This document shows positions 3,235-20,783 of a stretch of 20,783 bases of DNA, piece by piece. A program made the position numbers and the translations under genes. Within the stretch, counting starts at the first letter, position 1, and each line of letters begins with the position of its first letter. The notes beneath the pieces were generated by a model. That model made no database searches, was not told the DNA's origin, and worked only from the letters and a program-made list of their open reading frames with translations. Origin of the DNA: a virus. The stretch is from UHGV virus genome UHGV-0270338; one strand, written 5' to 3'.

Positions 3235-3237
3235 GGA

Positions 3238-4622: not shown

Positions 4623-4687
4623 TATCGTTTTTAATTAACTGATTATTTATCTCATCACTGAATATCTTTATATAGTGAGGACTTATT

Positions 4688-6529: not shown

Positions 6530-6834
6530 TGACCACTTTTACCGACAAAGAACTGATTAAAGAAATTAAAGAGCGTATCAGCAGCCTTGACGTGCGAGAC
6601 GATATTGAGCGCCGTGCTTATGAAATCGCACTCCTATCTCTGGAAGTAGAACCAGATGAACGCGAAGCTTATGAATTATTCATGGAAAAGCGTTTCGGTG
6701 ACTTAGTAGATCGTCGGAGAGCAAAAAACGGCAATAACGAATACATGGCATGGGATATGACTCTCGGTTGGATCGTCTGGCAGCAACGAGCTGGTATCCA
6801 TTTTTCAACAATGTCACAGCAAGAGGTGAAATAA
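6529..6834 (+). CDS. yfdT: YfdT-like prophage protein
   Basis: 101 aa; synteny; overlaps neighbours by 1 nt on each side. Confidence 0.45.
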   Translation: MTTFTDKELIKEIKERISSLDVRDDIERRAYEIALLSLEVEPDEREAYELFMEKRFGDLVDRRRAKNGNNEYMAWDMTLGWIVWQQRAGIHFSTMSQQEVK

Positions 6835-7184
6835 TGGAGCCATACAGCCTCACACTCGATGAGGCCTGTCATTTTCTCAAGATATCCAGACCGACTGCCA
6901 TTAACTGGATACGCACAGGGCGTCTTCAGGCAACACGCAAAGATCCCACTAAGAATAAATCTCCTTACCTCACAACACGACAAGCCTGCATTGCGGCTCT
7001 TCAGTCTCCGCTGCATACTGTCCAGGTGAGCGCGGGTGATGGCATAACAGAGGAAAGAAAATGTCACTCTTCCGCAGAGGTGAAATATGGTACGCCAGTT
7101 TCACATTGCCGAACGGTAAAAGATTTAAACAGTCTCTTGGAACAAAGGACAAAAGGCAGGCGACAGAACTCCATGACAAGCTAA
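6834..7184 (+). CDS. xis: Excisionase (Xis), P22-type
   Basis: 116 aa from ATG 6834 (SD gaggtg upstream; TAATG overlap with yfdT stop); HTH-like [26 protein letters not shown]; 3' end overlaps int start as in lambdoid int-xis modules. Confidence 0.6.
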
Positions 7185-8224: not shown

Positions 8225-8225
8225 C

Positions 8226-8257
8226 TTATTGATTTTAATGGTGCCGATAATAGGAGT
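8226..8257. repeat. att repeat: displaced copy of the tRNA-Thr 3' end (19 nt) plus 11 nt of downstream flank
   Basis: ttattgatttt-aa-tggtgccgataataggagt matches 20628..20662 (ttattgatttt-cttga-tggtgccgataataggagt); the 19-nt part is the reverse complement of the tRNA 3' end ACTCCTATTATCGGCACCA. Confidence 0.85.
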
Positions 8258-8343
8258 AAAACACTCGATTAATCTCGTGTTAATGCCATCACCTACGACC
8301 ATTACTAATTGATTGAATCTTATAGAAAAAATTATCATTTTCT

Positions 8344-9678
8344 ATGCGTTACAATCAATTTTCACATTACAAACGCTCCGACACTTTAGCCGGGGAGTTT
8401 ATGAGATACAAGCCCAATCAATACATAATCTGTGATTCTTACGGTAACTACTATTTACGGATCACGCTGCCTGTGTATATGCAGCCCTTTTTTGAAGGAA
8501 AAAGGACGTTTGTCAGGAGTCTGCACACAAGTAATCTTCGTGTTGCACGTAGAAAGCGTGATCAGATTGCAGATGAATACCATTGCTTACGGGAGAGTGT
8601 TGCCCCTGTAAACAGCACAATAGAGAACACGCTGGAACTGTTACGCAGTAAGGCTAAATACGCCAAAACAGCTACCAGAATGCAAGATACAGCGTCTTCG
8701 TGTCCGTCATTGCTTAAAATTCTTGAAATCTACCTGACAATTAACAGCACGAAGAAGAAGCCAGCCACTTTAGCTAAGGCAAGAAAAGCGGTAGAGATGT
8801 TTCTCTCCTACCGTAAAAAGCCTGATATTGCATTGCAAGATGTAAGCCGCACCACTGTTACAGGCTGGATTGAACACATGCAAAAAACCCTTTCACAACA
8901 ATCAATTGCAAATTATATCAGCCCAATGGCCCAGCTATGGGAGTTAGCTTCATCACGTTACCACGATGCGCCAGAAAGGGCGCTCTCCCCCTGGCGAGGG
9001 CATAGGCTTGATGTGGCACAAAGTAGAGAGAGCTACGAGGCATTTTCTAACAAAGAGCTATTGCAGGTGTTGCAAGTATTTTCCGGTAATTCAGCAGAAA
9101 ACAAAGAAATGATGGCTTTGTGTCTTATCGGTGCTTATACAGGTATGCGGATCAATGAGATAGCAAGTCTCACAATAGACGATGTGAAAGAGATCGAAGG
9201 TGTGCTGTGTTTTGAAATCACACAGGGAAAAACGAAAGCTGCGGCGCGTGTTGTGCCTGTACATAGCCTTATCACTCCGTTGGTGTTGTCGCTGCGTGAA
9301 AAGCCTCATAATGGCTTTTTGTTCTATCACGCCAGCATCACAGAACGTGCTGATGGTAAACGTTCCACGTGGCACACGCAGAGATTTACAAGAGCTAAAC
9401 GAAAGGCTTTAGGGGAAAAGGGAACAGAAAGGAAAGTGTTTCATTCTCTGAGACACGGAGTAGCACAGCTTCTTGATCGAAATCAAATTCCAGAAGACAG
9501 GATCGCCCTTCTCCTGGGCCATACACGCGGCAATACAGAGACATTCCGCACATATAGCAAGAATGCAGCTTCTCCAGTAGAGCTTAAAAAATATATTGAG
9601 CTTCTACGCTACCCTGAAATAGAGAAAGGCTTATCAATCAATAAAAAATCAAATTTAAGGCGTAAAACAACGCCATAG
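8344..9678 (+). CDS. Tyrosine integrase of the second element
   Basis: 444 aa (alternative start ATG 8401 with ggggag SD gives 425 aa); motifs TGMRINEIASL (R), FHSLRHGVAQLL (HxxR), LLGHTRGN...FRTYSK (H, Y); unrelated in sequence to the upstream int. Confidence 0.8.
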   Translation: MRYNQFSHYKRSDTLAGEFMRYKPNQYIICDSYGNYYLRITLPVYMQPFFEGKRTFVRSLHTSNLRVARRKRDQIADEYHCLRESVAPVNSTIENTLELLRSKAKYAKTATRMQDTASSCPSLLKILEIYLTINSTKKKPATLAKARKAVEMFLSYRKKPDIALQDVSRTTVTGWIEHMQKTLSQQSIANYISPMAQLWELASSRYHDAPERALSPWRGHRLDVAQSRESYEAFSNKELLQVLQVFSGNSAENKEMMALCLIGAYTGMRINEIASLTIDDVKEIEGVLCFEITQGKTKAAARVVPVHSLITPLVLSLREKPHNGFLFYHASITERADGKRSTWHTQRFTRAKRKALGEKGTERKVFHSLRHGVAQLLDRNQIPEDRIALLLGHTRGNTETFRTYSKNAASPVELKKYIELLRYPEIEKGLSINKKSNLRRKTTP

Positions 9679-9686
9679 ACGCAATA

Positions 9687-9720
9687 AAGAGGCTTCAACA
9701 TAGATTGGTAGCCTCTTTTA
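9687..9720. terminator. Bidirectional hairpin terminator between int2 and the convergent minus-strand operon
   Basis: aagaggct ... agcctctt 8-bp stem followed by tttta on plus strand and preceded by aataaa. Confidence 0.45.
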
Positions 9721-9759
9721 TAATTACATCGTTACAGAGCGTTTTAGAGGCATTTACGG

Positions 9760-10473
9760 CTATTCCTGTTTAAAGGCAGGAGTAATAGTGTCTTCACCTT
9801 CACTACTTGATTTTTCAGTGTTAACACGTTTTTTCATATTAGCCCCGATGTTCTTAGATGGCTGTGTTTTGATAGCTACAGTGTTTACAGTGCCATAAGA
9901 AACGAGCCTGATCTGCTCAAAGCTAAGATCAAATACTAGGGATTCGCTTGCCTCTTCTGTGTATTCGATGCCTGTTAAAACAACGTTCTCAAAAGTTTTA
10001 TTTTCTGTAACAAGAAGAAAAGGCTGTCTACTGTCCATAATCTGATTCAGATAATCAATCGCTAATGATCTTCTGTTCCCGTTCACCCCTGCACTCTTTA
10101 ACAAGCCAGGATCGCTTTTAATCGGTGTTTCAGTGATCCTTCCTTTAAGAGAAAACTTATTGTTTTTAATTTGAACGTGATCCGATACATTAGCACCATT
10201 TTCTACGGGGTAGCTTGTAACATCTGCCGAACGTCTCACGTTCACATCGTCAACACTGTCAAAGGCCAGTGCCATATAATTTTCATAAACGTCATTACCA
10301 GAAGATGCCAGCCCACTGGTAACAATAGCAAATCCATTTTCTCCTTTTGTTTTATTGGCTTTGCTATTTTCGTTTTTTGTAGAGTTTATATCTTGTTCTG
10401 CTTTGTAAACAGCCTGAACGTGTTGTTCTGGAGTATTTGCTGCACGTATGGTTAAAATCCCGGCGGTCGCCAT
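9760..10473 (-). CDS. Hypothetical protein, last gene of the structural-like operon
   Basis: 237 aa ORF, Ser/Thr/Asn-rich; no recognisable motif. Confidence 0.45.
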   Translation of the reverse strand: MATAGILTIRAANTPEQHVQAVYKAEQDINSTKNENSKANKTKGENGFAIVTSGLASSGNDVYENYMALAFDSVDDVNVRRSADVTSYPVENGANVSDHVQIKNNKFSLKGRITETPIKSDPGLLKSAGVNGNRRSLAIDYLNQIMDSRQPFLLVTENKTFENVVLTGIEYTEEASESLVFDLSFEQIRLVSYGTVNTVAIKTQPSKNIGANMKKRVNTEKSSSEGEDTITPAFKQE

Positions 10474-10506
10474 AATAATAATTTCCTTGTAATGTTATGG
10501 CGGGAA

Positions 10507-12345
10507 TTACCCGCCGTTGGATTGTCCTGATAAGCTGGTTAATGTTAATGATTTCAAGAAGCTATCCCGACTTGCTCTCGCTGTAAAATCCACATAATCG
10601 CTTAATCTGGATGTGTCAGAATTAATAGTAAGAGGAACTTCTGTTACCACTTCAAATGTAGGATTCAGATTAAACACAGGAGATAAATTATAAGCCGGAG
10701 TTGTCATTGCAAGATTATTTAAAGCACCCTGTTTGAGATTGGTTATCGGTGCTTCGCTGACTGACATTTTTACATCTGACACAGAAGAAGCATTATCATC
10801 GAAAAGCAATCCCTTAAGAGTGTTAAAGAAAGAATGACTATTATCAGGTGTAGTTGTTGCAGTGCCAGCGCCTTTATATTGGTCAGGAACGAGCTTAGAA
10901 AGATGCTGTTTCATCCCTTCATTGCTTAATGGCGGTGCATCTCCCATATTTTTCTGAATAGCATCTGTCTTATCATCATTACGATTAAACCAGTTTACAA
11001 TCTTCATAATGGCTTCAAAAAGACTTCCTGACGCTTCTCCTAGCCTTGTAAAATACGGAGTGAGATTAGAAAGGTTTTTCATAAACTCTTCCGTTACTTT
11101 TGGATCGAGAGATTTCATAAAGCCGTCTACGAATGCTACTTGTCTTGCATCAGAAAGCTGTGAAAGCTGTCTGTTTAGTTCTCTGAATTTAACAATAGAG
11201 TCTTGCTGTGTTTCTGTTAGCCATTTTCCAGAGGCTTTTTGCTGATTAATACTTTCTTGTACATCTTTAACGGAACGTTGCCAATATTTTGACGTAAGCA
11301 TCAAATCATCGCCCAGGTCTTCTAAACGTTGTCCAATTTGGGAGTCTGAAAACCCTTTTTTCATCATTCCATTAACAGCCTTAGAAATTAATCCGGCTGG
11401 ATTATCAGCAAATTTTTTAAGGTCGCTCTTGTTAATAACACCGATGTTTAGAAGTTCATTAATAGCGTTATCACCGCCTTTCCATTCGCCGCCTTTACCA
11501 GTTTTTTTATCGACTACATATTCAGCTTCACTATAGGATTTTGCGGCACGTTCCCTAACATCTTTCATCTGATCCAGGTATTTCCTAGCCCCTTGATCAC
11601 CCATCATAGAGTCAACGCCGTTTCTATAGGCCCATTCTGTAATGTTGTACATCTGGTTAACGTCTACACCGCCAAGCCTTGCACGTTGAATTAGCTCACC
11701 TTGTGTCTCTGCGTTAGCGAAACTGTTACTAACAAACTCCGACGCTTTACTAACAGCCATCACGCCAGCAGCCGCTGTAGCGCCTCCAAATAACAGAGCA
11801 CCCATCGTGGCGGAATTCCCTGATCCTCCTCCCTTAACGGGGGCTAATTGAGCTTTTCTGTTGCCATTAATCTTACGTTGTTGCTGTTGTAGGCGTTTCA
11901 TCTGACTATTCATACGTGCAAGCGAGATAGCCCCTTGCTCATATTGTTTTGCTATCTCTCTAGCCTGTGCAATAGCTTTGTATTGTTCCGCTACAGAGAG
12001 GCGGTGCATTGCACTGATAGAGCTTGACACATCAAGGAGTTTTAATTCTGCTTTCTCTTTACGTGCTGCTATTTGTTGCTGTTGCCTTGCCTGTGCTCTT
12101 GCTGCGGCAGCTTGTGCTCTTTGATTTTGTTTTTCGGTTTTAGCTTTCTGTTGAGCAATCTTATCTACTTCACTTTGTGCTTTCTTATAGCCTTTAGTGA
12201 CATTATCAAACCTTAATTTAGCGGGCTTGATGTTTTCTGCGAATTCCTTTAAGCCTGTAATAGAGTCTTTCGCTTTTTTCAAGCTGTCTTTATCTACACT
12301 AAATGTTACTGTGTTCTTAATTTTAGAAGTGTTAATTTCTAACAT
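10507..12345 (-). CDS. Coiled-coil protein with Gly/Ala-rich hydrophobic segment (tape-measure-like or scaffold-like)
   Basis: 612 aa; N-terminal Q/A/K/R-rich helical region (AQAAAARAQARQQQQIAARKEKAELK), then GGGSGNSATMGALLFGGATAAAGVMAV; no Walker A or other catalytic motif seen. Confidence 0.5.
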   Translation of the reverse strand: MLEINTSKIKNTVTFSVDKDSLKKAKDSITGLKEFAENIKPAKLRFDNVTKGYKKAQSEVDKIAQQKAKTEKQNQRAQAAAARAQARQQQQIAARKEKAELKLLDVSSSISAMHRLSVAEQYKAIAQAREIAKQYEQGAISLARMNSQMKRLQQQQRKINGNRKAQLAPVKGGGSGNSATMGALLFGGATAAAGVMAVSKASEFVSNSFANAETQGELIQRARLGGVDVNQMYNITEWAYRNGVDSMMGDQGARKYLDQMKDVRERAAKSYSEAEYVVDKKTGKGGEWKGGDNAINELLNIGVINKSDLKKFADNPAGLISKAVNGMMKKGFSDSQIGQRLEDLGDDLMLTSKYWQRSVKDVQESINQQKASGKWLTETQQDSIVKFRELNRQLSQLSDARQVAFVDGFMKSLDPKVTEEFMKNLSNLTPYFTRLGEASGSLFEAIMKIVNWFNRNDDKTDAIQKNMGDAPPLSNEGMKQHLSKLVPDQYKGAGTATTTPDNSHSFFNTLKGLLFDDNASSVSDVKMSVSEAPITNLKQGALNNLAMTTPAYNLSPVFNLNPTFEVVTEVPLTINSDTSRLSDYVDFTARASRDSFLKSLTLTSLSGQSNGG

Positions 12346-12359
12346 TTAAAATCCCCTTA

Positions 12360-12563
12360 TTAATCATTTTTACCACCTTCTTTACTTAAGAAATGGTGTA
12401 GAGCCTGATCAATACTCTCGTTTAGTCTGAACATACGGGCTTTTACTCCTTCATATGGAACATCTAAGAGAGAACATAGATATTTCAGATTTAACAAGCC
12501 TCTTGAATCATTAGCATCTAAATGTACGTGTACACCATTTTTTGATTTCAAAATCACTTCCAT
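12360..12563 (-). CDS. Hypothetical small protein
   Basis: 67 aa; SD gaggtga upstream of ATG; directly follows an internal terminator. Confidence 0.4.
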   Translation of the reverse strand: MEVILKSKNGVHVHLDANDSRGLLNLKYLCSLLDVPYEGVKARMFRLNESIDQALHHFLSKEGGKND

Positions 12564-12587
12564 ATTTTAATCACCTCTCAAAATTTA

Positions 12588-12632
12588 AAAAATAAATAAA
12601 AAAAAGGCGAAGCGTGAATACACGCCACGCCT
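12588..12632 (-). terminator. Rho-independent terminator immediately after the capsid-like gene
   Basis: Minus-strand RNA forms aggcguggcgug-uauu-cacgcuucgccu followed by an 8-U run (plus-strand A-run 12590..12604). Confidence 0.6.
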
Positions 12633-12649
12633 CTATTACACGTTAAATA

Positions 12650-13678
12650 TTATTTAACAGTGATTTGAACGGAGAAGCCTACACCGTGGTTTACAACCAT
12701 CTGGCTATTCTCTGTAACAACGTTAACAGCATCACCACGAGAAGATTCATAGCTATAGCTGTACACCTCAGCAGGAGCGGCATTAATCAGTTCAAAGGTG
12801 CTGGAAGCAGCCCCGTAGATGTTCTGATATACATTAGAGCCTTTAGCAAACTTCGGAACCGCTACAGCGTCTGCGGTCATATGTGCAAGGTGTAGCGGAT
12901 CTACCAGTTTAATAACATCAATGTTAGTTCCTGGAATAGTGAACGCTGTCACCCCCGGTAGCAGGTCACGACGCTGGTACACAACATTTCCCTCTTCCAG
13001 TGGGCTTACATACTGGAATGCGTTTGCCATACCCGCAGAGAATCGAATTGCAGAGAAGGCTTCCGGCTTACAGAAAACAACAATACGCTCTACAGCAGCC
13101 GCCTGGCTTTGTGCTTTCTCGATAATGTCAGTAGCAATCTGATCAAATTCTTTAAAAATCTTCGTGGTGTCAGTGCTGGAGGCGTTAACAGTGGCTTTCA
13201 TAGGTGTCACATTAAACAGCTTGCCCCACTCGATAAGAACATCATCAGTTTTCGGGGTGTAGGTGCGACCACTAAACAGAGAAGCAGCCAATACGCTCTC
13301 TTTTGTACGCTGATACGCTACGTGGTGTTTAGCAACATAGTCAGCATAGATATCAGTGAGTGTTTCCTGAAAATCAGTGCCAGGCTTACGCTTGCCTTGC
13401 ACGTCCTGCGGTTTGATCAGGTCTTGCCTTAAAAAGTACGGGATTTCAATAAGATATTCTTTACCTTGTTCTCGCTTAGTAACGTTGTGTTCAGAAGAGA
13501 AACGAGAGGTTTCTTTGTTGAACAGAGATTCGTTGCTTTCGACAAGCTGGGAAACAGCTACTTTATGAGATGTAACCCCTACAGAATCCGTAAAATCAAG
13601 AGTAGAGAGCAGATAGTTTCTAGTGCTATGAGCCTGGAAAAGCGGAGCTAAATCAACGTAATCATTACCTAGAATCAT
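12650..13678 (-). CDS. Putative HK97-fold major capsid-like protein
   Basis: 342 aa; segment RIVVFCKPEAFSAI...MANAFQYVSPLEEGN resembles, from memory, the conserved region of podovirus T7 gp10-type capsid proteins; followed by a strong terminator as is typical for a major structural gene; no signal peptide. Confidence 0.45.
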   Translation of the reverse strand: MILGNDYVDLAPLFQAHSTRNYLLSTLDFTDSVGVTSHKVAVSQLVESNESLFNKETSRFSSEHNVTKREQGKEYLIEIPYFLRQDLIKPQDVQGKRKPGTDFQETLTDIYADYVAKHHVAYQRTKESVLAASLFSGRTYTPKTDDVLIEWGKLFNVTPMKATVNASSTDTTKIFKEFDQIATDIIEKAQSQAAAVERIVVFCKPEAFSAIRFSAGMANAFQYVSPLEEGNVVYQRRDLLPGVTAFTIPGTNIDVIKLVDPLHLAHMTADAVAVPKFAKGSNVYQNIYGAASSTFELINAAPAEVYSYSYESSRGDAVNVVTENSQMVVNHGVGFSVQITVK

Positions 13679-13696
13679 TTATTATTATTCCTTTTA

Positions 13697-14059
13697 TTAA
13701 GAAGTGAAAACAGAGTGGAACCCTTCAAGCTGGAAGCCTTTTTTAATTAATGCTGTTTTTGCTGCTTCACTTACAGCATTCAGCGCATCAGCTTTGATGC
13801 AGACAAGGCCAGCATTGCTACGTAGCACATCTACAGGCTTGTTGTCTCCAGCCGTTAAAAACTCACTCATAACAACATAGATATCATCTCCTGATACATA
13901 TTTAGCGCCAGTGCTGGTGATCAAGTCGCCGCATTCAACATCAGCAGGAAGAGAAGCAAAAACCTTGCTTTCTACAGAGGCAAACGGATCAGTACAATAA
14001 CTTACAATATCTGTGAAAGTCTTTCGAACTGGAAATAGAGTGTCTAAATCAATAATCAT
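13697..14059 (-). CDS. Hypothetical protein (possible head accessory, decoration or scaffold protein)
   Basis: 120 aa; immediately upstream of the capsid-like gene, start overlaps stop of preceding ORF. Confidence 0.35.
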   Translation of the reverse strand: MIIDLDTLFPVRKTFTDIVSYCTDPFASVESKVFASLPADVECGDLITSTGAKYVSGDDIYVVMSEFLTAGDNKPVDVLRSNAGLVCIKADALNAVSEAAKTALIKKGFQLEGFHSVFTS

Positions 14060-14268
14060 TTAGTAATCTCCTTAGCTTTTAATTTGATTAATTCATTAAG
14101 GGAAGGTGTAGACGGAGAAGAAGGAGAAAAATATTTTTCAACACAACGTTCCACTTCTTCGACAGAACACCCAGCGTATTTAGCTACCATTTCGGTAATT
14201 TGTGGATTGATCTTTAGCATTTCATCGCGATACTTGATGATTTGCTCTTTATCATTTAAAAACAACAT
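14056..14268 (-). CDS. Hypothetical small protein, first gene of operon B
   Basis: 70 aa; translationally coupled (ATGA overlap) with the next gene. Confidence 0.35.
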   Translation of the reverse strand: MLFLNDKEQIIKYRDEMLKINPQITEMVAKYAGCSVEEVERCVEKYFSPSSPSTPSLNELIKLKAKEITK

Positions 14269-14303
14269 TTATATAAACCTTGTTACCTTGTTTAAAGTAA
14301 GAA

Positions 14304-14323
14304 ATACAACTTTTAAGTTGTAT
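14304..14323. promoter_or_regulatory. Perfect palindrome ATACAACTT-TT-AAGTTGTAT, candidate operator at the operon B promoter
   Basis: 9-bp inverted repeat with 2-bp spacer between the upstream terminator and the first ORF of operon B. Confidence 0.4.
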
Positions 14324-14335
14324 AACGGGCAAAAT

Positions 14336-14365
14336 AAAAGGCAGCATTTAGAGCCGCCTTTTATT
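14336..14365. terminator. Bidirectional hairpin terminator separating operon A from operon B
   Basis: aaaaggcagc-atttaga-gccgcctttt, flanked by A-run and T-run. Confidence 0.5.
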
Positions 14366-14392
14366 AACTTGTACCTATGTAATTACCCTATG

Positions 14393-14420
14393 TTATGCAT
14401 ACTCCAAGATGTATGCATAA
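14393..14420. promoter_or_regulatory. Two copies of palindromic octamer TATGCATA (ttatgcatac ... gtatgcataa), candidate operator
   Basis: Inverted pair of 10-mers, each containing a self-complementary TATGCATA. Confidence 0.35.
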
Positions 14421-14611
14421 CAAAGGAAAAAAGAGGTAATAATGACACTTAAGGAGGAGGAGAAGCGGGGAGCGGAGATTTTACTCCCCTTTAACGACAA
14501 GAAGAATTTTTAATATCGAACCAATAAAGGAAAAATAATCACCCTATATAATTATATTAACATACAATAGATGAAATGTCAAGATATTTTACAACTTTTT
14601 TGTTGCTTTTT

Positions 14612-14974
14612 TTATTCTTCTGTGATAACGGCTAAGCGTTGAGCGAGTTCGATAAGGCCATCTCCCACATAGCGAACATCAGATTCAATATCTTCTATCC
14701 AGTTTGATAGCTCCCATATCTGATCGGCTGTCAGGTATGCGTTCTCACGCTTACAGAGCATCTCTACACGCTTAGAGAGGTGCTCAAAGGCATTTACAGC
14801 TAAATCCCAGTGTTTAAACGCCTCATTAAGTGCCGCTGGCGTATTTTCTTTATATGCATCAAGTTCAGCGCGGTTTAAAGGCAGGAGGTAATCATCCTCA
14901 TAATAATTAATTAGTGAGTAAATTGTATCATACGTGTTTTTGTTCATATTAAAAGTCTCCATAGTGATCATCAT
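14612..14974 (-). CDS. Hypothetical helical protein
   Basis: 120 aa ORF; likely true start at internal ATG (MNKNTYD..., ggag 9 nt upstream). Confidence 0.4.
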   Translation of the reverse strand: MMITMETFNMNKNTYDTIYSLINYYEDDYLLPLNRAELDAYKENTPAALNEAFKHWDLAVNAFEHLSKRVEMLCKRENAYLTADQIWELSNWIEDIESDVRYVGDGLIELAQRLAVITEE

Positions 14975-15356
14975 TATCTAAATGGAATTCAGGAACTAAA
15001 TTATTTAGGCCATTGGTGGCGAGATAACCAACGTAGTGGTTATAGTCTTCAAATCCTAAAATCTGGTATTTGCGTAAATCAGAGCTGTCAACGATATACT
15101 CTTTTCTTTTTCTAGGTTTCCAGAACACGCCAGGTGTTGAAGATAAGATTTCTTGTAATGCGATATATTCATCTCCACAAGGCACAGAGGGAGAATGTTC
15201 TATGATCTCTGTTTTCCATTCGCCAGGGGCGCTATTTTGCTTGGAGAGCGTAACTAGCTCTTTAAAGTCTTTGCGTCTTAGAATAGATTTAGGTTTACTT
15301 AGAAGAGAAGCTGAATCACCGATTTTCTTAACAACGTTGTTTTTTCTTTTTGCCAT
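14949..15356 (-). CDS. Hypothetical protein with basic N-terminus and acidic C-terminus
   Basis: 135 aa; MAKRKNNVVKK N-terminus; ends ...HLDNDDHYGDF. Confidence 0.4.
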   Translation of the reverse strand: MAKRKNNVVKKIGDSASLLSKPKSILRRKDFKELVTLSKQNSAPGEWKTEIIEHSPSVPCGDEYIALQEILSSTPGVFWKPRKRKEYIVDSSDLRKYQILGFEDYNHYVGYLATNGLNNLVPEFHLDNDDHYGDF

Positions 15357-15485
15357 TTATTTTTCCTTTTCTTTTAAAGGAAAACACCCCGAAGTATGTT
15401 TCTAACGTGAGAAAGAACAATAACCAATACATAGCTACTATCATAATAATGTTTTCCTTTTATATTTTAATTACATAGAGAGATT

Positions 15486-15761
15486 TTAGAGAGTGGAATA
15501 GATGAATTCTACTTTACCCAGTCTTTTGAGATTGAATGTAGAGAAAGATAATTCTTTAATCTCTATAACACCGAAATTTGATAGCTGTCTAAGCCAGAAT
15601 TTTAAACCATCTTCAGAGCAAGCTGCTCGATGTAACACATCGCTATATTTTAGCGGTGTTGGCTTTCCTTTATAGAGGTAAGCAAGTGTCTCGTAGATGC
15701 GTTTTCCTGTGTCATTACACTGAATTCTGTCTACTTGATTTTTTACTAAATATTGAATCAT
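15486..15761 (-). CDS. Hypothetical small protein
   Basis: 91 aa ORF in operon A. Confidence 0.4.
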   Translation of the reverse strand: MIQYLVKNQVDRIQCNDTGKRIYETLAYLYKGKPTPLKYSDVLHRAACSEDGLKFWLRQLSNFGVIEIKELSFSTFNLKRLGKVEFIYSTL

Positions 15762-15772
15762 AACCCTCCTTA

Positions 15773-16429
15773 TTAAAATGGAATATCAAAGTCATCATAC
15801 ACATTTGGGTAATGCTTAGAAAAATATGCCTCAATACCATTTGGTAGCTTTAACCTGTGCTTATAGGCTAACGATGTTGCAAATTCTATAAATGATGCTC
15901 CTCCTGTTCTTTTGTCTTTCTTCTGGATGATAAGAGAGGCAAAATTCTCTAACACATCCTCCTCATTATCATTAGCTACCTTTTCACTTGATGAAACAGG
16001 TGTTTCTTCCGTCTCCCACGGTAAAGGCGTATCCCAATCATCATCAAGAACATCAAAAGAAGACTCTTTATTATCTTCCGTAGGGGGAAGCTGATCAGGA
16101 ACAGCTTTAACAGTAGCTTCTTGTTGTGTCTGGGCTTCTTGTCTAGCTTCTTCTTGTGGAATATCTACCACTTGATAGACATTAGAACTTCCTGGTCGTG
16201 CATCTTTTATAATTAATCCCATTTCGAGCAATTTCTTAACCCTTTCCTCTGCTGCTCTTGGTGTTATGCCAAAAACATCGCCTATCTTAGCGTAAGAGGG
16301 AAATGCACGATCAAACCCTTTCAGATAGCAGTAAAGGTTTTTAGCACTATCTGTAAATTTATGCCCGTTTACTTGGCTTATTTTTAGAATCCACATAGGA
16401 ACTTTTACAAATTGTTCTTCATTAATCAT
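15773..16429 (-). CDS. Winged-helix DNA-binding protein with acidic linker and SSB-C-terminal-tip-like tail (candidate replication initiator / host replisome recruiter)
   Basis: 218 aa; N-terminal HTH-like segment (FPSYAKIGDVFGITPRAAEERVKKLLEMGLI); long D/E/Q-rich linker; C-terminus ...YDDFDIPF, close to the E. coli SSB tip DDDIPF. Confidence 0.55.
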   Translation of the reverse strand: MINEEQFVKVPMWILKISQVNGHKFTDSAKNLYCYLKGFDRAFPSYAKIGDVFGITPRAAEERVKKLLEMGLIIKDARPGSSNVYQVVDIPQEEARQEAQTQQEATVKAVPDQLPPTEDNKESSFDVLDDDWDTPLPWETEETPVSSSEKVANDNEEDVLENFASLIIQKKDKRTGGASFIEFATSLAYKHRLKLPNGIEAYFSKHYPNVYDDFDIPF

Positions 16430-16480
16430 TAAAAATCTCCTTATAAATCACGCTTAATGCGCTACTAAAGTGAATGAGGA

Positions 16481-16648
16481 TCACTTACCCTTTTTTTGTT
16501 TGATGTTCTCTGCTGCTTCAGTAATGATTTCTAACATCAAATCACTGACCATAATTTGCCTTTTCTTGGCTTCAGCAAATAAAACCTTGAAGATTTCAGG
16601 GTCAACGTGTAGGTAAGTGCGCGGAATTGGTTTCTTAGTTTCGCTCAT
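16481..16648 (-). CDS. Ribbon-helix-helix (RHH) DNA-binding protein
   Basis: 55 aa from ATG 16648 with excellent SD (aagaggaggag); beta-strand RTYLHV followed by two helices (PEIFKVLFAEAKKRQ, MVSDLMLEIITEA) typical of Arc/CopG/Omega fold. Confidence 0.55.
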   Translation of the reverse strand: MSETKKPIPRTYLHVDPEIFKVLFAEAKKRQIMVSDLMLEIITEAAENIKQKKGK

Positions 16649-16670
16649 AGTTTTCTCCTCCTCTTGTCTA

Positions 16671-16853
16671 TTATTCTTTCTCTGCTTCTTTCTTACGCAG
16701 TTCATCAATAATTTTCAGTGCATCGTCAAAACATTTTTCACGCTCTGGATAACCTCGACTCCTTGCCATATTACGGTTCATTACTACTTGGTGGCGTGTA
16801 AGCTCACCTTTTTTAAATGCCTGGACGACGTGCTCAGATGTAAACCATTTCAT
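16671..16853 (-). CDS. Small hypothetical protein, first gene of operon A (possible regulator or directionality factor)
   Basis: 60 aa; SD aaggag upstream; immediately upstream of the RHH gene. Confidence 0.4.
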   Translation of the reverse strand: MKWFTSEHVVQAFKKGELTRHQVVMNRNMARSRGYPEREKCFDDALKIIDELRKKEAEKE

Positions 16854-17616
16854 AAAAAACTCCTTATTCAGTTAAAAGAAATAAAACACCTTGCAAGCCT
16901 GACGGCTTCAAAGTGCATTGATTTTGATTATTTAGAGAAGAATGTTTTTCTGTCCCTCTAATACCTATTATTACATATAAAGAAACATTTGTCAATACCT
17001 TTTCATAAAAAATCTGATCTTTTTCATGCACTTACATTTTTTCTTAGCTATTCGTGCTCTTCTGTGTAGTGCTATTCTTCATTATCCGCTAAAACGCTCT
17101 AAAACGCGTTCTAACGAGATTTTGATAAAAGCAATACATTGCCTTATCTAATGGCTGTTTAGCTCGCCAGAGGCTTATTTAAGGGGCTTATTTTGTATTT
17201 GTTAGGTATATGAAAAGGTAATGGTAAATATAAAACAGAGAGTCACTTTATAAAACGCTCTGTAAAGACCTGTAGTGAGCTTATTATATGTAGGCAATGC
17301 GTTTCCATTCCCTACCCTGCTTAATGCTGTTAGAGAAGCATTTAGACCCCTTATTTTTAATTACCTAAAGTATCCTCTATACATCTCTGTTATGAAACAC
17401 CTCTGAATCCTTCATAAAACACATTATGACGCAAAGAACACTTTTCTAAGGTGATTCCCTTCCTGAACTCTGTTTCTTGCGTCAGAGAGCTACAGAGAGC
17501 TTATAAAGCTATTATTAATAATAAAGTAGATAAAGTAAGTAAGATAACTAAGATAGATAAGATTAATAAGATCAGAATTCTCTTTCGGTGTCGCCTCTGG
17601 CTTTTCCACCGAAAAC

Positions 17617-17740
17617 AATTACACGACTACAGAATGTGGAAGTGGAATTGTATTGAGGCTTAGTGAAATTACACGAGGAAAGCAGAGTGTAATTGAGCTT
17701 TAGCCGCTCTCTCTTCGAGTAATTACACAACTACAGAGAA
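17617..17740. repeat. Array of AATTACAC-containing repeats, including palindrome AATTACAC-N12-GTGTAATT (17667..17694)
   Basis: aattacacgactacaga (17617) and aattacacaactacaga (17721) are near-identical 17-mers; perfect 8-bp inverted repeat between them. Confidence 0.5.
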
Positions 17741-17995
17741 TAACGAGAGTTATTAAATGTAGGAGGGTAATTAAGAGTTAGAGAGAGTTAACACGTAAGC
17801 AATCAGTATGATTGGTTAGGTGATTACTCTTCTGCGCACAGCGCAATAGTATTTCTTCGTGGGCGTTACCGCCACGATAGTTACACGAAGAAAGTAACGC
17901 TTTGCTTTCGGTGTGAGCGGAACGGGCCAGCCAACGTAGCCCGAAAGGTAGCGGAGTAAGGCTGCTTGCCAGAGAGTGAAGCTAACGCCGGAAGG

Positions 17996-18180
17996 CAAAA
18001 GATCATATAAATAAATATATAATATTATAATTTAATAAGTAATTTAATAAATGATCTAATAGGTAACAGAATTCTGTGGGGGTGTCTAACAGAATTCTGT
18101 TAGGGTGGGGTAACAGAATTTTGTTAGGGTACAAATCTCTTTAAAAGTTAAGATTAACAGAATTCTGTGGGGGTAGCTCA
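17996..18180. promoter_or_regulatory. Origin-like region: roughly 65 bp of almost pure A/T followed by four iterons TAACAGAATT(C/T)TGTnnGGGT
   Basis: Iterons at 18064, 18087, 18111, 18155 (spacing 23, 24, 44 bp); each contains the palindrome ACAGAATTCTGT; no ORF support. Confidence 0.55.
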
Positions 18181-18224
18181 CAGTGACCTACCGTTACTAC
18201 CAATCATCACATAGCACTCACTCT

Positions 18225-18700
18225 GTGTAATGCCTTTCTATGTGTGTGCCATAATCCCCTATATTCCCTGTGTAAATCATAGAATAATGCTCTCTATTCC
18301 CTGTGTAATTCCCTACTAAAAAATCCAATGAAAAATGGCTTCAAAGTGCAATGTTAGCTTTCTTCACTTTTACATCACTTTCGCAAAGCCTTGTGTAATG
18401 CGGTTTACAGAGCACCATCAGAAATTGTTGGCTAAAAATTGTTCTGCTTGTTTCTGAACGAGTTTTCTCGTTTGTGCAAATTTTAAAATTTATTTTGTTT
18501 TTACAGCCTTATTTCGTGTAATGCGTGGCATAGCAAGCCCTTTTCTTGTGTTGTCAAGACATTTGGCAACGTTCAAACATCTGTTTAGAAATGCCAAATT
18601 GTTGATCTAACAAATAAACCTGTATAAACAGAACACCATTTAATCTATCCCCCTGTGTATCCATTAGGCATACCAAATGAATACATCTAAATCGTGTAAT
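18225..18700. repeat. Dispersed same-orientation GTGTAAT heptad motifs (about 6 copies) upstream of the serine recombinase gene
   Basis: Copies near 18225, 18269, 18302, 18392, 18517, 18694; two share the longer context tattccctgtgtaa(a)t; opposite orientation to the ATTACAC copies left of the iterons. Confidence 0.45.
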
Positions 18701-18793
18701 ATTCCGTACCCATAAGGCTTGAAACAGACCAAATGAATACGATATACTCATTTGCATTGAAGTAGTGCCAAATCGATACATTAAGAGGATTTT

Positions 18794-19333
18794 ATGAGCA
18801 ATATCGGCTATAAGCGTGTGAGCACTGTAGATCAGAACACTGATCGCCAGCTTGCAGGAGTAACGCTTGATAAAGTCTTTGAAGATAAGCTGTCAGGTAA
18901 AGACACTAACCGTCCAGGATTGCAGGCGTGTTTATCCTATCTGAGAGAAGGCGACACCTTACACGTGCACTCTCTCGACCGTTTAGGACGTAACACCTTA
19001 GACATCCTTGCTTTAGTTGAACAACTTAATAATCGAGGTGTGATTGTTCGATTTCACAAAGAAGGAATCATTGCAGACATTACAAGCGCGATGGGAAAAA
19101 TGATGCTTACTATGTTGTCGGCAGTTGCAACGTGTGAACGTGAACTGATGTTAGAGCGTAAACGAGAAGCGCAAGCCGTCAATCCTACAAAGCGTGGTAA
19201 AGGTAAAGCAGTAGATAGGGAAGGTATAAAGAAAGCCCTTTCCGCTGGCGTGTCAGTGCGTAAAACCGCCGAGAGCTTTAATGTTGCTCCTTCAACGGTG
19301 CAACGTATCAAGAAGGAAGAAGAGGAGGCGTAA
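18794..19333 (+). CDS. Small serine recombinase (resolvase/invertase family)
   Basis: 179 aa; N-terminal YKRVSTVDQNTDRQ with catalytic Ser; GKMMLTMLSAVATCERE resolvase core; C-terminal HTH (VSVRKTAESFNVAPSTVQRIKK). Confidence 0.8.
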   Translation: MSNIGYKRVSTVDQNTDRQLAGVTLDKVFEDKLSGKDTNRPGLQACLSYLREGDTLHVHSLDRLGRNTLDILALVEQLNNRGVIVRFHKEGIIADITSAMGKMMLTMLSAVATCERELMLERKREAQAVNPTKRGKGKAVDREGIKKALSAGVSVRKTAESFNVAPSTVQRIKKEEEEA

Positions 19334-19349
19334 TGCCTCCTTGATATTT
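19324..19349 (+). terminator. Hairpin terminator overlapping the recombinase stop codon
   Basis: ggaggc-gtaat-gcctcc followed by ttgatattt. Confidence 0.4.
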
Positions 19350-19660
19350 GGGGATTCTGGATTTTCCAGATCGGGGGGCGCTGATCTTCGCGTTAAACAT
19401 TGATCACGTTTGCGCCGATTTCAGATAAAAAGGCAGCTATTAAGCAATACGTAACTTTTACAATTAGTGAAATTATCTAAAACACAAGTTATATAGATGA
19501 GAAAATGAAATATTATCTTGAACAAATCAAACAAAACAACACATCATCTTGTTGACACCATGCAAAGTGAATAGTAAGCTATTATATGTGAAAATTTGCA
19601 CATTGCATGCAATAAAAAATAAATGATACCTTGTTGTTGTTAAATCAATAGGGGGTATCT

Positions 19661-19819
19661 ATGCGCTTTATCTTATCCATTTTAAAAACCTGCAGAACCA
19701 CAATTACTTTAGCTGTAATTGTTACCATCATATACCTCATCTATTTTACCCCTCGAGATAAAATCGATTCACTAGCGATCATCGTTCATGCAATGGCTAC
19801 ATTAACTAAAAAACTTTAA
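19661..19819 (+). CDS. Small hydrophobic single-TM peptide (candidate type I toxin-like or membrane peptide)
   Basis: 52 aa MRFILSILKTCRTTITLAVIVTIIYLIYFTPRDKIDSLAIIVHAMATLTKKL; SD ggggg 5 nt upstream; below the 60-aa cutoff of the ORF track. Confidence 0.4.
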   Translation: MRFILSILKTCRTTITLAVIVTIIYLIYFTPRDKIDSLAIIVHAMATLTKKL

Positions 19820-19885
19820 TAATTTCACTATCAGGCGCACAAACACATCTTTGATTGCTGGATGTGTTATGCGCCTACTGGTGAT

Positions 19886-20038
19886 TCAATCCTTAAGCCA
19901 TTTCAACTCACTAAGGAGTTTTCTTTCTTCGTTCTCTCGCTGTTTACGCTCTAGCCAGGCTTTTCCCTCTGGCGTAGACAGGAACTTACGAGCGTGAATC
20001 TTGCGGTTATTACGTTTTATAGCTGCAATGTTTTTCAT
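19886..20038 (-). CDS. Small basic protein, convergent with the hydrophobic peptide gene
   Basis: 51 aa MKNIAAIKRNNRKIHARKFLSTPEGKAWLERKQRENEERKLLSELKWLKD; SD agagg 7 nt upstream of ATG. Confidence 0.3.
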   Translation of the reverse strand: MKNIAAIKRNNRKIHARKFLSTPEGKAWLERKQRENEERKLLSELKWLKD

Positions 20039-20627
20039 CGTGTTGCCTCTGTATTCATATGAAAATTAACAAGTTACATACTACACAGGGAGACTACGCA
20101 TAAAACACAATACAAGTAAAGATACATTTTCAAGACAATAGGAGCCATAAAGCGCCTTTGATGGTTATACCAAAAAATAAGCGCCGTAGGCGTATCCACT
20201 AAAAGGGCTTTTTCACAAAAGCTATGAAGTCTTAGCAGTTCTTCTCTTATCAGGCACCCGTTGTACTCCGGTGGACGAAACCGTGCTAGAGCTTGATTCT
20301 TTCCCGATCAAGTTAGGTTTTGAAGAGGTGGGCTTTAATCCACTATTGCACTTAAAACTCTTCCCATCATTTAGCCTGTTTATCCTCTGCAACGTCTCAC
20401 GACGTGTGGCATCATTGGACACCGCGCCAGGTGTGGAACATCTTGCTAAGAGTTTTGGTAGAAGGTTTAGAGACGGTGGCACGTCTTCCAGCTTCAAAGG
20501 AACTTGTTACGAGGTTGAGCCTGGGAACTACTCGCCCATACGTGTTACACTACCAAAGCCCATAACAACGTATAGGCGTTTGTAAGTGATAACAGAAGAT
20601 ACAATTTCTTAGAGAAGTTAAGCTAAG

Positions 20628-20662
20628 TTATTGATTTTCTTGATGGTGCCGATAATAGGAGT
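20628..20662. repeat. att repeat at the intact tRNA-Thr 3' end (right boundary of the second element)
   Basis: Matches 8226..8257 apart from a 2 vs 5 nt spacer difference. Confidence 0.85.
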
Positions 20663-20719
20663 CGAACCTACGACCTTCGCATTACGAATGCGCTGCTCTA
20701 CCAACTGAGCTATATCGGC
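20644..20719 (-). tRNA. thrW: tRNA-Thr (anticodon CGU)
   Basis: Reverse complement reads GCCGATATAGCTCAGTTGGTAGAGCAGCGCATTCGTAATGCGAAGGTCGTAGGTTCGACTCCTATTATCGGCACCA: 76 nt, cloverleaf-compatible, anticodon loop CGT, encoded CCA. Confidence 0.9.
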
Positions 20720-20783
20720 CCTGAAAGGACATGTTCACGAACGTGAATCACGGTGGACAAGGTTAAAACTAACCGGGCGATGC

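Follow-up and report, generated by a model that had tools for sequence, protein, structure and literature searches.

How did two integrase genes come to lie in tandem beside a single threonine tRNA gene, and what kinds of element do they mark? The question is raised by a 20,783-nucleotide stretch of DNA from the virus genome UHGV-0270338 (hereafter the window), for which a preliminary description had proposed that a second integrative element inserted at an attachment site already occupied by a prophage. Tandem arrays of elements at tRNA genes are textbook knowledge. We put a probability of roughly 88% on the reading that successive site-specific integrations built a tandem array at thrW, the SfV-type element arriving first and a second element, El2, later. 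Such stacking is ordinary and well documented, a consequence of att sites being regenerated at a hotspot already known in E. coli; El2, whose capsid and tail genes resemble those of phi92-type virulent phages, is the more interesting part.

The duplicated tRNA end and the elements it bounds

Both ARAGORN and Rfam made one tRNA-Thr(CGU) call in the window, and proA lies beyond thrW in related loci, in a proA/proB context. Read as its reverse complement, the 19-nt 3' end of the tRNA gives the 19-mer TGGTGCCGATAATAGGAGT, which has exactly two copies (8239-8257 and 20644-20662), the second of them within the intact tRNA and forming its 3' end. Each copy has on its left an 11-nt flank, TTATTGATTTT (8226-8236 and 20628-20638), separated from the 19-mer by AA in the left copy and CTTGA in the right, a 3-nt indel. 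The repeats are 12,405 bp apart, and the left one begins 2 nt beyond the int1 stop codon (TAA, 8222-8224). Across 100 dinucleotide shuffles the 19-mer found no match, even with three mismatches allowed, confirming that the duplication is real, with no copy expected by chance. The preliminary description had placed these repeats exactly, including their relation to the int stop and to the tRNA, and the copies align beyond the tRNA-derived 19 nt, as it had asked to be checked. The attP arms of the two elements are both similar to the chromosomal flank native to thrW (GGGGTAACTCTTTGATTTTAA).

Table 1. Features of the window, with coordinates and supporting evidence.
Feature	Position	Strand	Evidence
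End of IS1 copy, cut by window edge; truncates SfV-type remnant upstream of O-acetyltransferase gene	1-139	minus	database matches, terminal inverted repeat
O-antigen O-acetyltransferase (Acyl_transf_3), cargo of the remnant, in gtrABC position	245-1336	plus	phrog_3333 E 9e-82; Pfam PF01757
Tail end of remnant, four genes	1565-4208	minus	phrog_105 E 4e-76; 98% nt identity to SfV orf19-21
Tail-fibre assembly gene	1565-2152	minus	
Tail fibre gene	2152-3234	minus	
Mu gp48-like gene	3238-3822	minus	
Truncated baseplate J gene, only C-terminal 96 residues of domain	3813-4208	minus	Baseplate_J profile positions 158-255 of 255
Early-left genes: YfdP, YfdQ/DUF2303, three small ORFs, then Xis	4219-7184	plus	comparison with SfV, SfII, SfIV
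Xis	6750-7184	plus	HTH_17 E 3e-8
Int1, SfV/P22-type tyrosine integrase, full length, 387 aa	7061-8224	plus	Phage_integrase E 3e-48
Hybrid att junction: SfV int-side arm TTATTGATTTTAA and 19-nt thrW 3' end (8239-8257), El2 arm directly after	8226-8257		
El2, 12.4-kb integrative element	8258-20627		absence from relatives with same remnant; same ends elsewhere
Int2, tyrosine integrase, 444 aa from 8344; DUF6538, SAM-like and catalytic domains	8344-9678	plus	Pfam
Tail tube initiator (Dit-like) homologue	9760-10473	minus	PF21821 E 1.5e-29; Phi92_gp135 E 3e-79
Tape-measure-like protein, 612 aa	10507-12345	minus	phrog_16051 E 1e-53; Phi92_gp134 E 2e-38
Major capsid protein, 342 aa	12650-13678	minus	Phage_cap_E E 2e-14 over full length; Phi92_gp124 E 3e-7
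Rep-like HTH protein, 218 aa	15773-16429	minus	PHROG replication initiation O-like families
Four iterons, core TAACAGAATTCTGTTA, preceded by AT-rich tract	18062-18174		repeat search and sequence view
Serine recombinase (Hin/Pin-like invertase or resolvase)	18794-19333	plus	Resolvase E 1e-33 and HTH_7; phrog_125 E 6e-55
Att junction at thrW: El2 arm TTATTGATTTTCTTGA and 19-nt core forming intact tRNA 3' end	20628-20662		
Intact tRNA-Thr(CGU) gene thrW	20644-20719	minus	ARAGORN; Rfam tRNA 71.8 bits

Each of the two elements encodes its own integrase (Phage_integrase domains in Int1 and Int2), a tRNA-derived core stands at every junction with an intact tRNA at one end, and each element occurs alone elsewhere with the same boundaries. 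El2 occupies thrW in 216 of 5,426 complete E. coli genomes (~4%) with identical ends in every copy examined, 19 nt followed by AAAACACTCG on the left and TTATTGATTTTCTTRA followed by 19 nt on the right. In four loci (L003, L004, L009 and L011) it stands beside the native chromosomal flank with no remnant, and several of the El2 genomes examined have no SfV-type neighbour; in L001 a P4-like element adjoins it, and in L007 a CP4-6-like island. In four other loci (L016, L017, L018 and L021) the same deleted remnant, at 99.96-99.99% identity to window positions 140-8257 or 88-8257, is joined straight to thrW-proA with El2 absent, and the 45 nt to the left at the 8226-8257 junction are identical to those that abut the intact tRNA in these El2-free loci. 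The comparison with isolates carrying one element, which had been suggested earlier, was in this way obtained for both; likewise, the segment between the repeats, rather than being contiguous core chromosome in relatives, is absent from near-identical ones.

Arrays of two to four elements at thrW are common. As in the tRNA-gene tandem arrays that Mageeney et al. (2020, PMC7192596) describe for integrative genetic elements, elements entered one after another at att copies that their predecessors had regenerated, diverse neighbours have integrases of their own, and an intact tRNA stands at one end with partial copies at internal junctions. There is no essential difference, although here the identity blocks are nested but unequal (46 versus 19-21 bp), which makes the internal junction a truncated form of the older element's site. 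Could positions 140-20662 instead be a single composite mobile unit with two integrases? The same array is present in several assemblies, the int1-att-int2 junction recurring in at least three complete E. coli genomes and some 20 draft assemblies, and in L012 the El2 next to a fuller SfV-like prophage matches that of the window at 99.6% identity, against 95-96% for El2-only copies. However, elsewhere each half stands alone at thrW and is precisely bounded at the internal att, the window's lineage lacks the outer distal 46-bp att, and clonal descent explains the co-occurrence, which together make such a unit very improbable.

A deleted SfV-type remnant

The left element had been described as a prophage, but is instead an internally deleted SfV-type remnant of ~8.1 kb, truncated by IS1. 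A complete phage genome with head, tail, lysis, replication and immunity genes was not found there; the ~8 kb left keeps the O-acetyltransferase (whose gene has a low GC content, 0.33), tail-fibre genes, a truncated baseplate J gene, and an SfV/P22-type Int and Xis that adjoin attP. From orf32 through xis, and likewise in int1, nucleotide identity to SfV, SfII and SfIV is 98-99.9%. The tail block and the early-left block flank attP on opposite sides of the circular SfV map, and deletion of the entire head, lysis, replication and immunity region has fused the tail genes to the yfdP region. With the Shigella flexneri serotype-converting phages SfV, SfI, SfII and SfIV, which occupy thrW, and with P22, the remnant shares its Int, Xis and early-left genes at this level of identity, the order int, attP, O-antigen-modification gene, and the 46-bp core (PMC3636060). 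It differs from them in its size, with only ~8 kb surviving, in having an acyltransferase in place of gtrABC, in the fusion of its truncated baseplate J gene with the early region, and in both att sites, the distal one lost to IS1 and the proximal one split by El2.

Thousands of E. coli records contain IS1 family transposase regions that match positions 1-187 at 92-97%, the IS1 terminal inverted repeat GGTGATGCTGCCAACTTAC lies at 122-140 on the minus strand, and homology to the acyltransferase region begins at 140. A 46-bp att core at both ends of the remnant was absent, the int-side junction retaining 19 bp only. No distal 46-bp copy was found in the 10 kb to the left in L015, an identical chromosome, where, beyond the window, the native flank adjoins a third, degenerate core copy. 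The El2-free loci L016 and L017 do have 46-bp repeats, the distal copy being followed by the SfV gtrA-side arm; in the window's lineage, IS1 removed the remnant's distal 46-bp att.

Nested att cores and the proposed order of arrival

The attP of SfV holds 46 bp of thrW, the same 46-bp core as in P22 (PMC3636060), and the SfV-type identity block with thrW is 46 bp here as well, starting at the anticodon loop; the earlier suggestion that the P22-like int fits thrW as its attB was therefore sound. The accompanying claim that El2 used the same core stands for the 19 nt common to both elements and not for the extent of the site: El2 shares with thrW only the 3'-terminal 19-21 bp, nested inside the 46 bp, and of the 46-bp SfV core the copy at 8226-8257 has just 19 bp. 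Because elements lying between El2 and thrW in L007 and L008 have left partial tRNA copies of 49 and 46 bp, and the K-12 prophage CP4-6 one of 49 bp, against the 19 bp of El2, thrW has two att classes, one at the anticodon loop (46-49 bp) and one at the 3' end (19-21 bp). Judging from the extent of the identity blocks, crossover by SfV/P22-type integrases would take place at the anticodon loop, for which work by Williams in 2002 (Nucleic Acids Res 30:866) reportedly offers support. The two thrW targets are nested, and therefore the repeat lengths and the order of elements in an array record the order of arrival. El2 resembles cryptic CP4-6 (IntF) in its thrW hotspot, native flank (yagP-paoD side) and integrase at the tRNA-distal end, but identity between IntF and Int2 is just 24% over 136 aa, and the partial tRNA copies differ in length as above.

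We propose that an SfV/P22-type phage would first have integrated through the 46-bp attP/attB identity block and then decayed to the 8-kb remnant with its Int, Xis, tail-fibre genes and O-acetyltransferase. El2 would have recombined later through the 19-21 bp common to its attP and the extreme 3' end of thrW, probably by catalysis of Int2, which is unrelated to Int1, and would have inserted exactly between the int stop codon of the remnant and the tRNA body. El2 supplies a new tRNA 3' end, so that thrW stays intact and 19-nt direct repeats flank El2. The tRNA-proximal att of the remnant is split as well: the int-side arm and 19 bp of core are left at 8226-8257, and the remaining 27 bp of the SfV core, the presumed crossover region among them, are in thrW at a distance of 12.4 kb. 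With its att so divided, the remnant should be blocked from normal Int1/Xis excision while El2 is present, and precise excision of El2 would restore the site. The earlier claim of a second insertion at a prophage-occupied att site agrees with the two integrase-bearing elements in tandem and with the relatives in which the remnant lies on thrW without El2. These relatives support a later arrival of El2 than of the SfV/P22-type element, or an ability of El2 to leave precisely: they could descend from El2 carriers by loss, still via site-specific recombination at the same sites. The whole array could also have been imported by homologous recombination, in which case the assembly event would have occurred in another strain, its nature unchanged.

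In principle either att copy of a resident element can take a second one (PMC7192596), and the SfV arm and the native flank are alike at 17 of 21 nt, as would suit a reverse order in which El2 came first and an SfV-type phage later entered its tRNA-distal 19-nt att copy. That copy, however, is without 27 of the 46 bp of the SfV attP/thrW block, including the anticodon-loop end, and the remnant, as a deletion derivative, could not have infected. Moreover, an identical remnant lies directly on thrW in El2-free relatives, of which L021 has the same IS1 junction as the window, and elements of the anticodon-loop type that arrived after El2 sit between El2 and thrW, with copies of 46-49 bp. We consider the reverse order extremely unlikely and retain SfV-type first, El2 later.

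The preliminary description had also raised the possibility that either integrase, or the prophage Xis, acts on the att sites of the other element. Action of Int1 and/or the SfV Xis on the El2 sites, or of Int2 on those of SfV, could supply an excisionase that El2 seems to be missing (none was recognised in it with Pfam and PHROGs, as had been noted before), Xis and Int1 are intact, and the 19-nt core and 11-nt flank are common to both sites. Against this, Int1 and Int2 align over 67 aa only, at 28% identity, and are essentially unrelated outside the catalytic motif; the attP regions have no common motif above chance beyond the core and 10-11 nt of flank; and identity blocks of such different extent imply that crossover positions differ too. 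With unrelated integrases and unrelated attP arms, it is improbable that either Int, or the SfV Xis, recognises the sites of the other element, and since El2 stands without an SfV-type neighbour in several examined genomes, its genes there being under selection, it cannot depend on the SfV Xis.

Bellanger and colleagues reportedly described site-specific accretion and cis-mobilisation of ICEs and CIMEs, in which one integrase recognises all att sites. The thrW array likewise has internal and external att sites common to two elements, from which separate or joint excision would be possible in principle, whereas its integrases, by sequence comparison, are neither one nor closely related, its identity blocks differ (46 versus 19-21 bp) and its outer distal site is gone. 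Interplay between the two elements is structural, El2 parting the SfV int-side arm from the rest of its core by 12.4 kb. An element with a short target that cuts the att of a long-target neighbour predicts a hierarchical dependency in excision, which matters where that neighbour is a more complete serotype-converting prophage, as is apparently so in L012.

Gene content and possible nature of El2

Purifying selection acts on Int2 and all El2 genes, with dN/dS of 0.00-0.2 for most (0.00-0.10 for Int2, whose RefSeq start is at 8401, giving 425 aa, and 0.09-0.14 for the major capsid protein). The tube initiator homologue is 61% identical to both muut_230 and the 'tail tube initiator' of EmilieFrey, and the tape-measure-like protein is 28-53% identical to muut_231, which adjoins muut_230 in phage muut. 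The N-terminal domain of the Rep-like protein and an upstream 55-aa ORF (16481-16648) form mosaics with genes of virulent Justusliebigvirus and Phapecoctavirus: the ORF equals muut_153 at 100% identity, and window positions 16422-16659 and 16076-16142 are 99.6% and 98.5% identical to muut. The first three iterons are 23-24 bp apart and the fourth lies 44 bp beyond; they are not present in muut, and their region is a candidate origin for El2.

Known satellite types were weighed as places for El2. Of the PICI set (int, an Stl-type repressor, pri-rep with ori, terS or another packaging module, and genes for capsid-size redirection), El2 was seen to have int along with a Rep-like HTH protein and iterons, and no terS, primase, AlpA or repressor was recognised with Pfam, PHROGs and PADLOC; as a capsid-forming PICI, which would need major capsid protein, portal, protease, head-tail connectors and terminase, it was rejected, the major capsid protein alone being found, with no portal, protease or terminase in Pfam and PHROGs. 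Nor is it a P4-like satellite, having no P4-type integrase, alpha primase-helicase, Psu, Sid or Delta/Ogr, markers that do occur in the P4-like neighbours of L001 and L005. A search of El2 for terminase, portal, primase, AlpA, Sid and Psu markers together found none.

Hints of a satellite come from the homologues of phi92 gp124, gp134 and gp135 and from patches 99-100% identical to virulent phages, including those of Justusliebigvirus. El2, itself uncharacterised, may represent a new satellite family. More specifically, though with the odds somewhat against it, El2 could be the Escherichia member of an undescribed family of ~10-12-kb integrative satellites or phage-targeting parasites across Enterobacterales. 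In E. coli it would exploit or interfere with virulent phi92/phAPEC8-type myophages (Stephanstirmvirinae), swap DNA with them during infection, encode its own versions of the capsid, tape-measure and tube-initiator proteins, and immobilise prophages of the P22/SfV and CP4-6 types by splitting their longer-core att at the 3' tip of thrW. El2 is where the greater potential value lies: it is a conserved 12-kb element under purifying selection, present in ~4% of complete E. coli genomes. Should it prove to be a satellite, or a defence island that poisons assembly, it would join the small number of known parasites that attack large virulent coliphages used in phage therapy.

El2 is like the satellites of virulent phages, PLE (with ICP1) and PICMI, in being an integrase-bearing island of ~12 kb with its own Rep-like protein and iterons, in its mosaicism with a virulent myophage group and in having genes related to that phage's virion proteins; it differs from them in encoding its own major capsid protein, tape-measure-like and tube-initiator homologues. 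The IMG/VR matches appear, by their contig names, to be provirus calls from isolate genomes rather than virome particles. The conserved core of the proposed family comprises the Rep-like gene with iterons, a small recombinase, the major capsid protein and the tape-measure-like protein, and in relatives from other genera the position of the serine recombinase is taken by a small tyrosine recombinase.

Stacked elements at the thrW gene

The stacking of two integrative elements at thrW, the main reading of the preliminary description, is real. The left element is a remnant of an SfV/P22-type prophage with its integrase, Int1, and the right one, hereafter El2, is a 12.4-kb element (window 8258-20627) with its own tyrosine integrase, Int2. 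The 3'-terminal 19 nt of the tRNA gene, TGGTGCCGATAATAGGAGT on the plus strand, occur exactly twice in the window, at 8239-8257 and 20644-20662, and this 19-mer had no match in 100 dinucleotide-preserving shuffles with three mismatches permitted. Directly to the left of both copies lies TTATTGATTTT (8226-8236 and 20628-20638), the intervening spacer being AA in the left copy and CTTGA in the right, and the int ORF stops 2 nt short of the left copy. The repeat had therefore been described correctly, both copies and their flank being found where they were placed. The 11-nt flank is common to the two copies because the SfV arm, which matches the native thrW flank at 17 of 21 nt, and the El2 arm, which is also similar, both resemble that flank.

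Principal features of the window
Feature	Position	Strand	Remark
End of IS1	1-139		
O-acetyltransferase, acyltransferase-3 family	245-1336		GC 0.33
Tail-fibre assembly gene, tail-fibre gene, Mu gp48-like gene, baseplate J end	1565-4208	minus	
SfV-type early-left genes: yfdP, yfdQ, three small ORFs	from 4219		
HTH_17 excisionase	6750-7184		
Int1	7061-8224		full-length integrase
Int2	8344-9678		second tyrosine integrase
Long operon, 16.9 to 9.8 kb: small ORFs, Rep-like HTH protein, several unknown ORFs, MCP, 612-aa tape-measure-like protein, Dit-like tube initiator		minus	
AT-rich tract with four iterons	18062-18174		
Serine recombinase	in El2		
tRNA-Thr(CGU)	20644-20719	minus	sole tRNA gene in window

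The left element had been taken for a prophage. An SfV/P22-type int is indeed present, but only two fused ends of the phage are left. The SfV genome runs in the order early genes, xis, int, attP, O-antigen genes and tail genes; the window therefore holds both ends of an integrated SfV-type phage from which everything between baseplate J, reduced to the C-terminal 96 residues of its domain, and yfdP has been deleted. The acyltransferase gene stands where SfV carries gtrABV, and was found at 99.7-99.8% identity in only 6 of the 5,426 complete E. coli genomes (at least 80% query coverage). IS1 cuts the remnant 105 nt upstream of this gene.

The same array is present in about 20 assemblies besides the complete chromosome L015 (CM127689.1), to which window 1-11336 is 100% identical, and the int1-att-int2 junction occurs in three further complete genomes. 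Proteins exactly matching the MCP and the tape-measure-like protein of the window are labelled E. coli, and a scan of GTDB representative genomes gave a single match, in Escherichia sp. A Shigella origin, which the IS1 and SfV-like genes could have suggested, was rejected on the strength of the match to CM127689.1 and these protein labels. Further out than the IS1, L015 has a gene for a HEPN-domain protein and, next to the native thrW flank, a degenerate copy of the att (TGGTGCGATAATAGGAGAAAAACAC; L015:7140-9840), and the array therefore holds the remnant of at least a third element, with an El2-type att.

Each element alone and the history of the array

Comparison with genomes having only one of the elements, a check proposed in the preliminary description, recovered both the remnant alone and El2 alone. 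With at least 80% coverage of window 8000-20783 as the basis for counting, El2 was found in 216 of 5,426 complete E. coli genomes; identity was about 95%, and thrW-proA adjoined it in every case. In three loci (L003, L004 and L011) it has thrW at one end and, on the yagP/paoD side, the native chromosomal flank at the other, without SfV genes; in a fourth (L009) the junction sequence is similar and the neighbouring genes are different. Elsewhere El2 adjoins a P4-like satellite (L001) or a CP4-6-like island (L007), or is followed by a P22-type remnant and then a P4-like remnant (L005); in L012 its neighbour appears to be an SfV-like prophage that is more complete than the remnant.

El2-free loci were reached through the exact O-acetyltransferase protein of the window. 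Four of them (L016, L017, L018 and L021) have the remnant with the same deletion (99.96-99.99% identity over window 140-8257 or 88-8257), one (L021) with the same IS1 junction as well, and in all four the position corresponding to 8257 runs straight into the tRNA body and proA. These are precise El2 empty sites in essentially the same background. They could also be read as relatives that have lost El2, but such a loss needs the same site-specific recombination, reversed.

To compare the att sites, all copies of the 19-mer were extracted from 22 loci. The 19-mer on the integrase side leads into AAAACACTCGATT in all El2 copies; at the other end, all of them have AAGTTATTGATTTTCTT(A/G)A, then the 19-mer, then the rest of the tRNA. 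What stands to the left of the integrase-side 19-mer is the prior occupant of the site: a P4-like end, the flank with the stop codon of the SfV int, or a native-type flank such as GGGGTAACTCTTTGATTTTAA, a sequence that K-12 has beyond CP4-6 as well. Since the ends of El2 are constant across copies, its attP has only 19-21 bp in common with thrW, from the last three bases of the T-loop through the CCA end and a further one or two bases. The SfV attP shares 46 bp with thrW, beginning one base before the anticodon loop (see also PMC3636060); the remnants in L016 and L017 retain a distal 46-bp copy followed by the SfV gtrA-side arm, and K-12 CP4-6 leaves 49 bp at thrW. The gene thus offers two nested classes of target, and the "same core" formerly assigned to both elements applies to the 19 nt that they have in common, but not to the full blocks, 46 bp for SfV and 19-21 bp for El2.

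Some smaller observations concern these sites. In L007 and L008, thrW and El2 are separated by integrase-bearing elements of two further kinds, which leave partial tRNA copies of 49 bp (L007:15503-15660) and 46 bp (L008:15752-15980) by the right end of El2; the copy in L007 is mis-annotated as a 112-nt tRNA-Ser. Several genomes, E. coli AR_0128 among them, have an SfV-type int and att core followed by only the first ~24 nt of the El2 arm, which suggests other elements, or El2 remnants, with El2-type att arms. In the El2 arm itself (window 8258-8320), 31 nt after the core, ACCTACGACC...ATTAC resembles the next segment of thrW (ACCTACGACCTTCGCATTAC), and may be a relic of an identity block that was once longer, or a chance match (blastn-short E 0.35).

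The left copy in the window has the SfV arm on one side and just 19 of the 46 SfV bp before the El2 arm, and the deleted remnant could not have come in as a phage. In the simplest history of the array, an SfV-type phage would have integrated into thrW and decayed to the remnant, El2 would then have integrated through the 3'-terminal 19-21 bp, between the int1 stop codon and the tRNA body, and the distal att of the remnant would have been lost in an IS1-associated event. According to the usual rule, reportedly set out by Williams in 2002, a phage copy must cover the tRNA gene from the point of crossover to its 3' end. Strand exchange by the SfV/P22-type phage would accordingly fall at the anticodon-loop end of its block; that of El2 lies somewhere within the 19-21-bp block. 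El2 puts 12.4 kb between the SfV int-side arm and the remaining 27 bp of SfV core, and we therefore infer that no normal Int1/Xis excisive complex forms, and excision of the remnant by this route is blocked, until El2 leaves. The predicted junction of the El2 circle is ...AAGTTATTGATTTTCTTGA-TGGTGCCGATAATAGGAGT-AAAACACTCGATT..., and the site repaired by its exit would read ...GTGTAACTTATTGATTTTAA-TGGTGCCGATAATAGGAGT-CGAACC....

That integrative elements line up in tandem where att sites are regenerated is well established (PMC7192596), and thrW, the known site of SfV, SfI, SfII and P22 (PMC3636060), is listed among the hotspots of E. coli (PMC7545054); the stacking is therefore an ordinary instance of a known process. 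To this the present analysis adds the nested geometry of the cores and what it entails for the older element, natural empty sites as proof, and the recognition that El2 is an uncharacterised element, one that probably interacts with phages and merits attention apart from the stacking.

Probable independence of the two recombination systems

It had been proposed that Int1, Int2 or the SfV Xis might act on the att sites of the other element. Several results argue against such cross-talk. Int1 and Int2 could be aligned over 67 residues only, with 28% identity, and the two reconstructed attP regions have nothing above chance in common apart from the core and flank. El2 has candidate arm motifs of its own, an inverted GCGTTTGTAA and ATTGATT-type repeats. 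Finally, in examined genomes without an SfV neighbour, El2 persists under purifying selection (dN/dS 0.00-0.2 for Int2, the MCP, the tape-measure-like gene and the Dit-like gene).

Counted from the core of the reconstructed El2 attP, the two GCGTTTGTAA copies stand at -68 and +128 (window 20575-20585 and 8385-8395), and a 23-nt inverted repeat (window 8307-8360) lies just upstream of, and overlaps, the int2 start; both are candidate regulatory or arm-type sites. Identity of Int2 with IntF, the K-12 CP4-6 integrase, was rejected at 24% identity. As the preliminary description had remarked, El2 has no recognisable excisionase, searches of its small ORFs against Pfam and PHROGs being negative.

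El2 and phi92-like phages

The AT-rich tract, its iterons (TAACAGAATTCTGTTA, the first three at 23-24 bp spacing and the fourth 44 bp further) and two nearby 28-nt repeats (18251-18311) fall within the gene-poor 1.8 kb that separate the Rep-like operon from the serine recombinase, and window 17990-18340, which contains them, is a probable El2 origin. The iterons are absent from muut, a virulent Justusliebigvirus phage (Stephanstirmvirinae), and the idea that they mimic its origin was rejected. A search of the whole window against Rfam returned the tRNA only, the gene-poor stretch at 16.9-18.8 kb matching no known RNA family. El2 also contains a 22-nt inverted repeat (16856/19901); no invertible segment was found for the serine recombinase, all alignments of El2 copies being colinear, without inversion.

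The late genes of El2 (window 9760-13678) are homologues of solved phi92 virion proteins: the tube initiator matches gp135 (E 3e-79), the tape-measure-like protein gp134 (E 2e-38) and the MCP the capsid protein gp124 (E 3e-7). In muut, the gp135- and gp134-type homologues are encoded by adjacent genes, with 61% and 28-53% identity to those of El2, and the best phage matches are all virulent E. coli or Klebsiella myophages of 145-151 kb. Window 16422-16659 has 99.6% nucleotide identity to muut and includes a 55-aa ORF whose product is 100% identical to muut_153; window 16076-16142 has 98.5% nucleotide identity to muut, and identity to Mt1B1_P17 is 90% over the N-terminal part of the Rep-like gene. 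The near-identical patches are shared with strictly virulent Justusliebigvirus and Phapecoctavirus phages and imply that recombination took place recently, during infection.

Neither a terminase nor a portal was found in El2, and its assignment as a P4-like element or as a capsid-forming PICI was rejected on gene content. Of the genes expected of PICIs in general, El2 has an integrase and, with its iterons, a Rep-like HTH protein; Pfam, PHROGs and PADLOC recognised no terS, primase, AlpA or repressor. PADLOC found no defence-system match in El2. Together, the sequence comparisons suggest that El2 stands in a satellite or anti-phage relationship to phi92-like phages, and that it may be a functional, widespread element that acts on them as a satellite or as a defence island interfering with assembly. 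A scan of IMG/VR with the MCP matched only contigs that seem, by name, to be provirus calls from isolate genomes, and is uninformative on packaging. The literature searched, with incomplete coverage, held no description of an El2-like element or of a satellite of Stephanstirmvirinae, phi92 or Phapecoctavirus.

The MCP family reaches Enterobacter, Citrobacter, Klebsiella, Cronobacter, Sodalis and Serratia (38-64% identity). In the loci read from Enterobacter, Serratia and metagenome contigs (L040-L045), the MCP lies in elements with the El2 layout, in the order small ORFs, HTH_36 Rep-like gene, ~74- and ~122-aa ORFs, MCP, 63-aa ORF and ~615-aa protein. These elements are bounded by an integrase, and their sites and integrases differ from those of El2; two of the metagenome contigs are approximately element-sized (12.3 and 9.6 kb). 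In the loci read outside Escherichia, a tyrosine recombinase of 183-193 aa occupies the position of the serine recombinase, and the Dit-like gene is absent.

Within E. coli, an El2-like variant is located at leuX, the tRNA-Leu(CAA) gene (L014:3896-15232). The C-terminal ~183 aa of its integrase are 100% identical to those of Int2, whereas identity is only ~45% over the N-terminal ~260 aa, the DNA-recognition half. Here a change in the tRNA gene targeted goes together with a natural swap of integrase domains.
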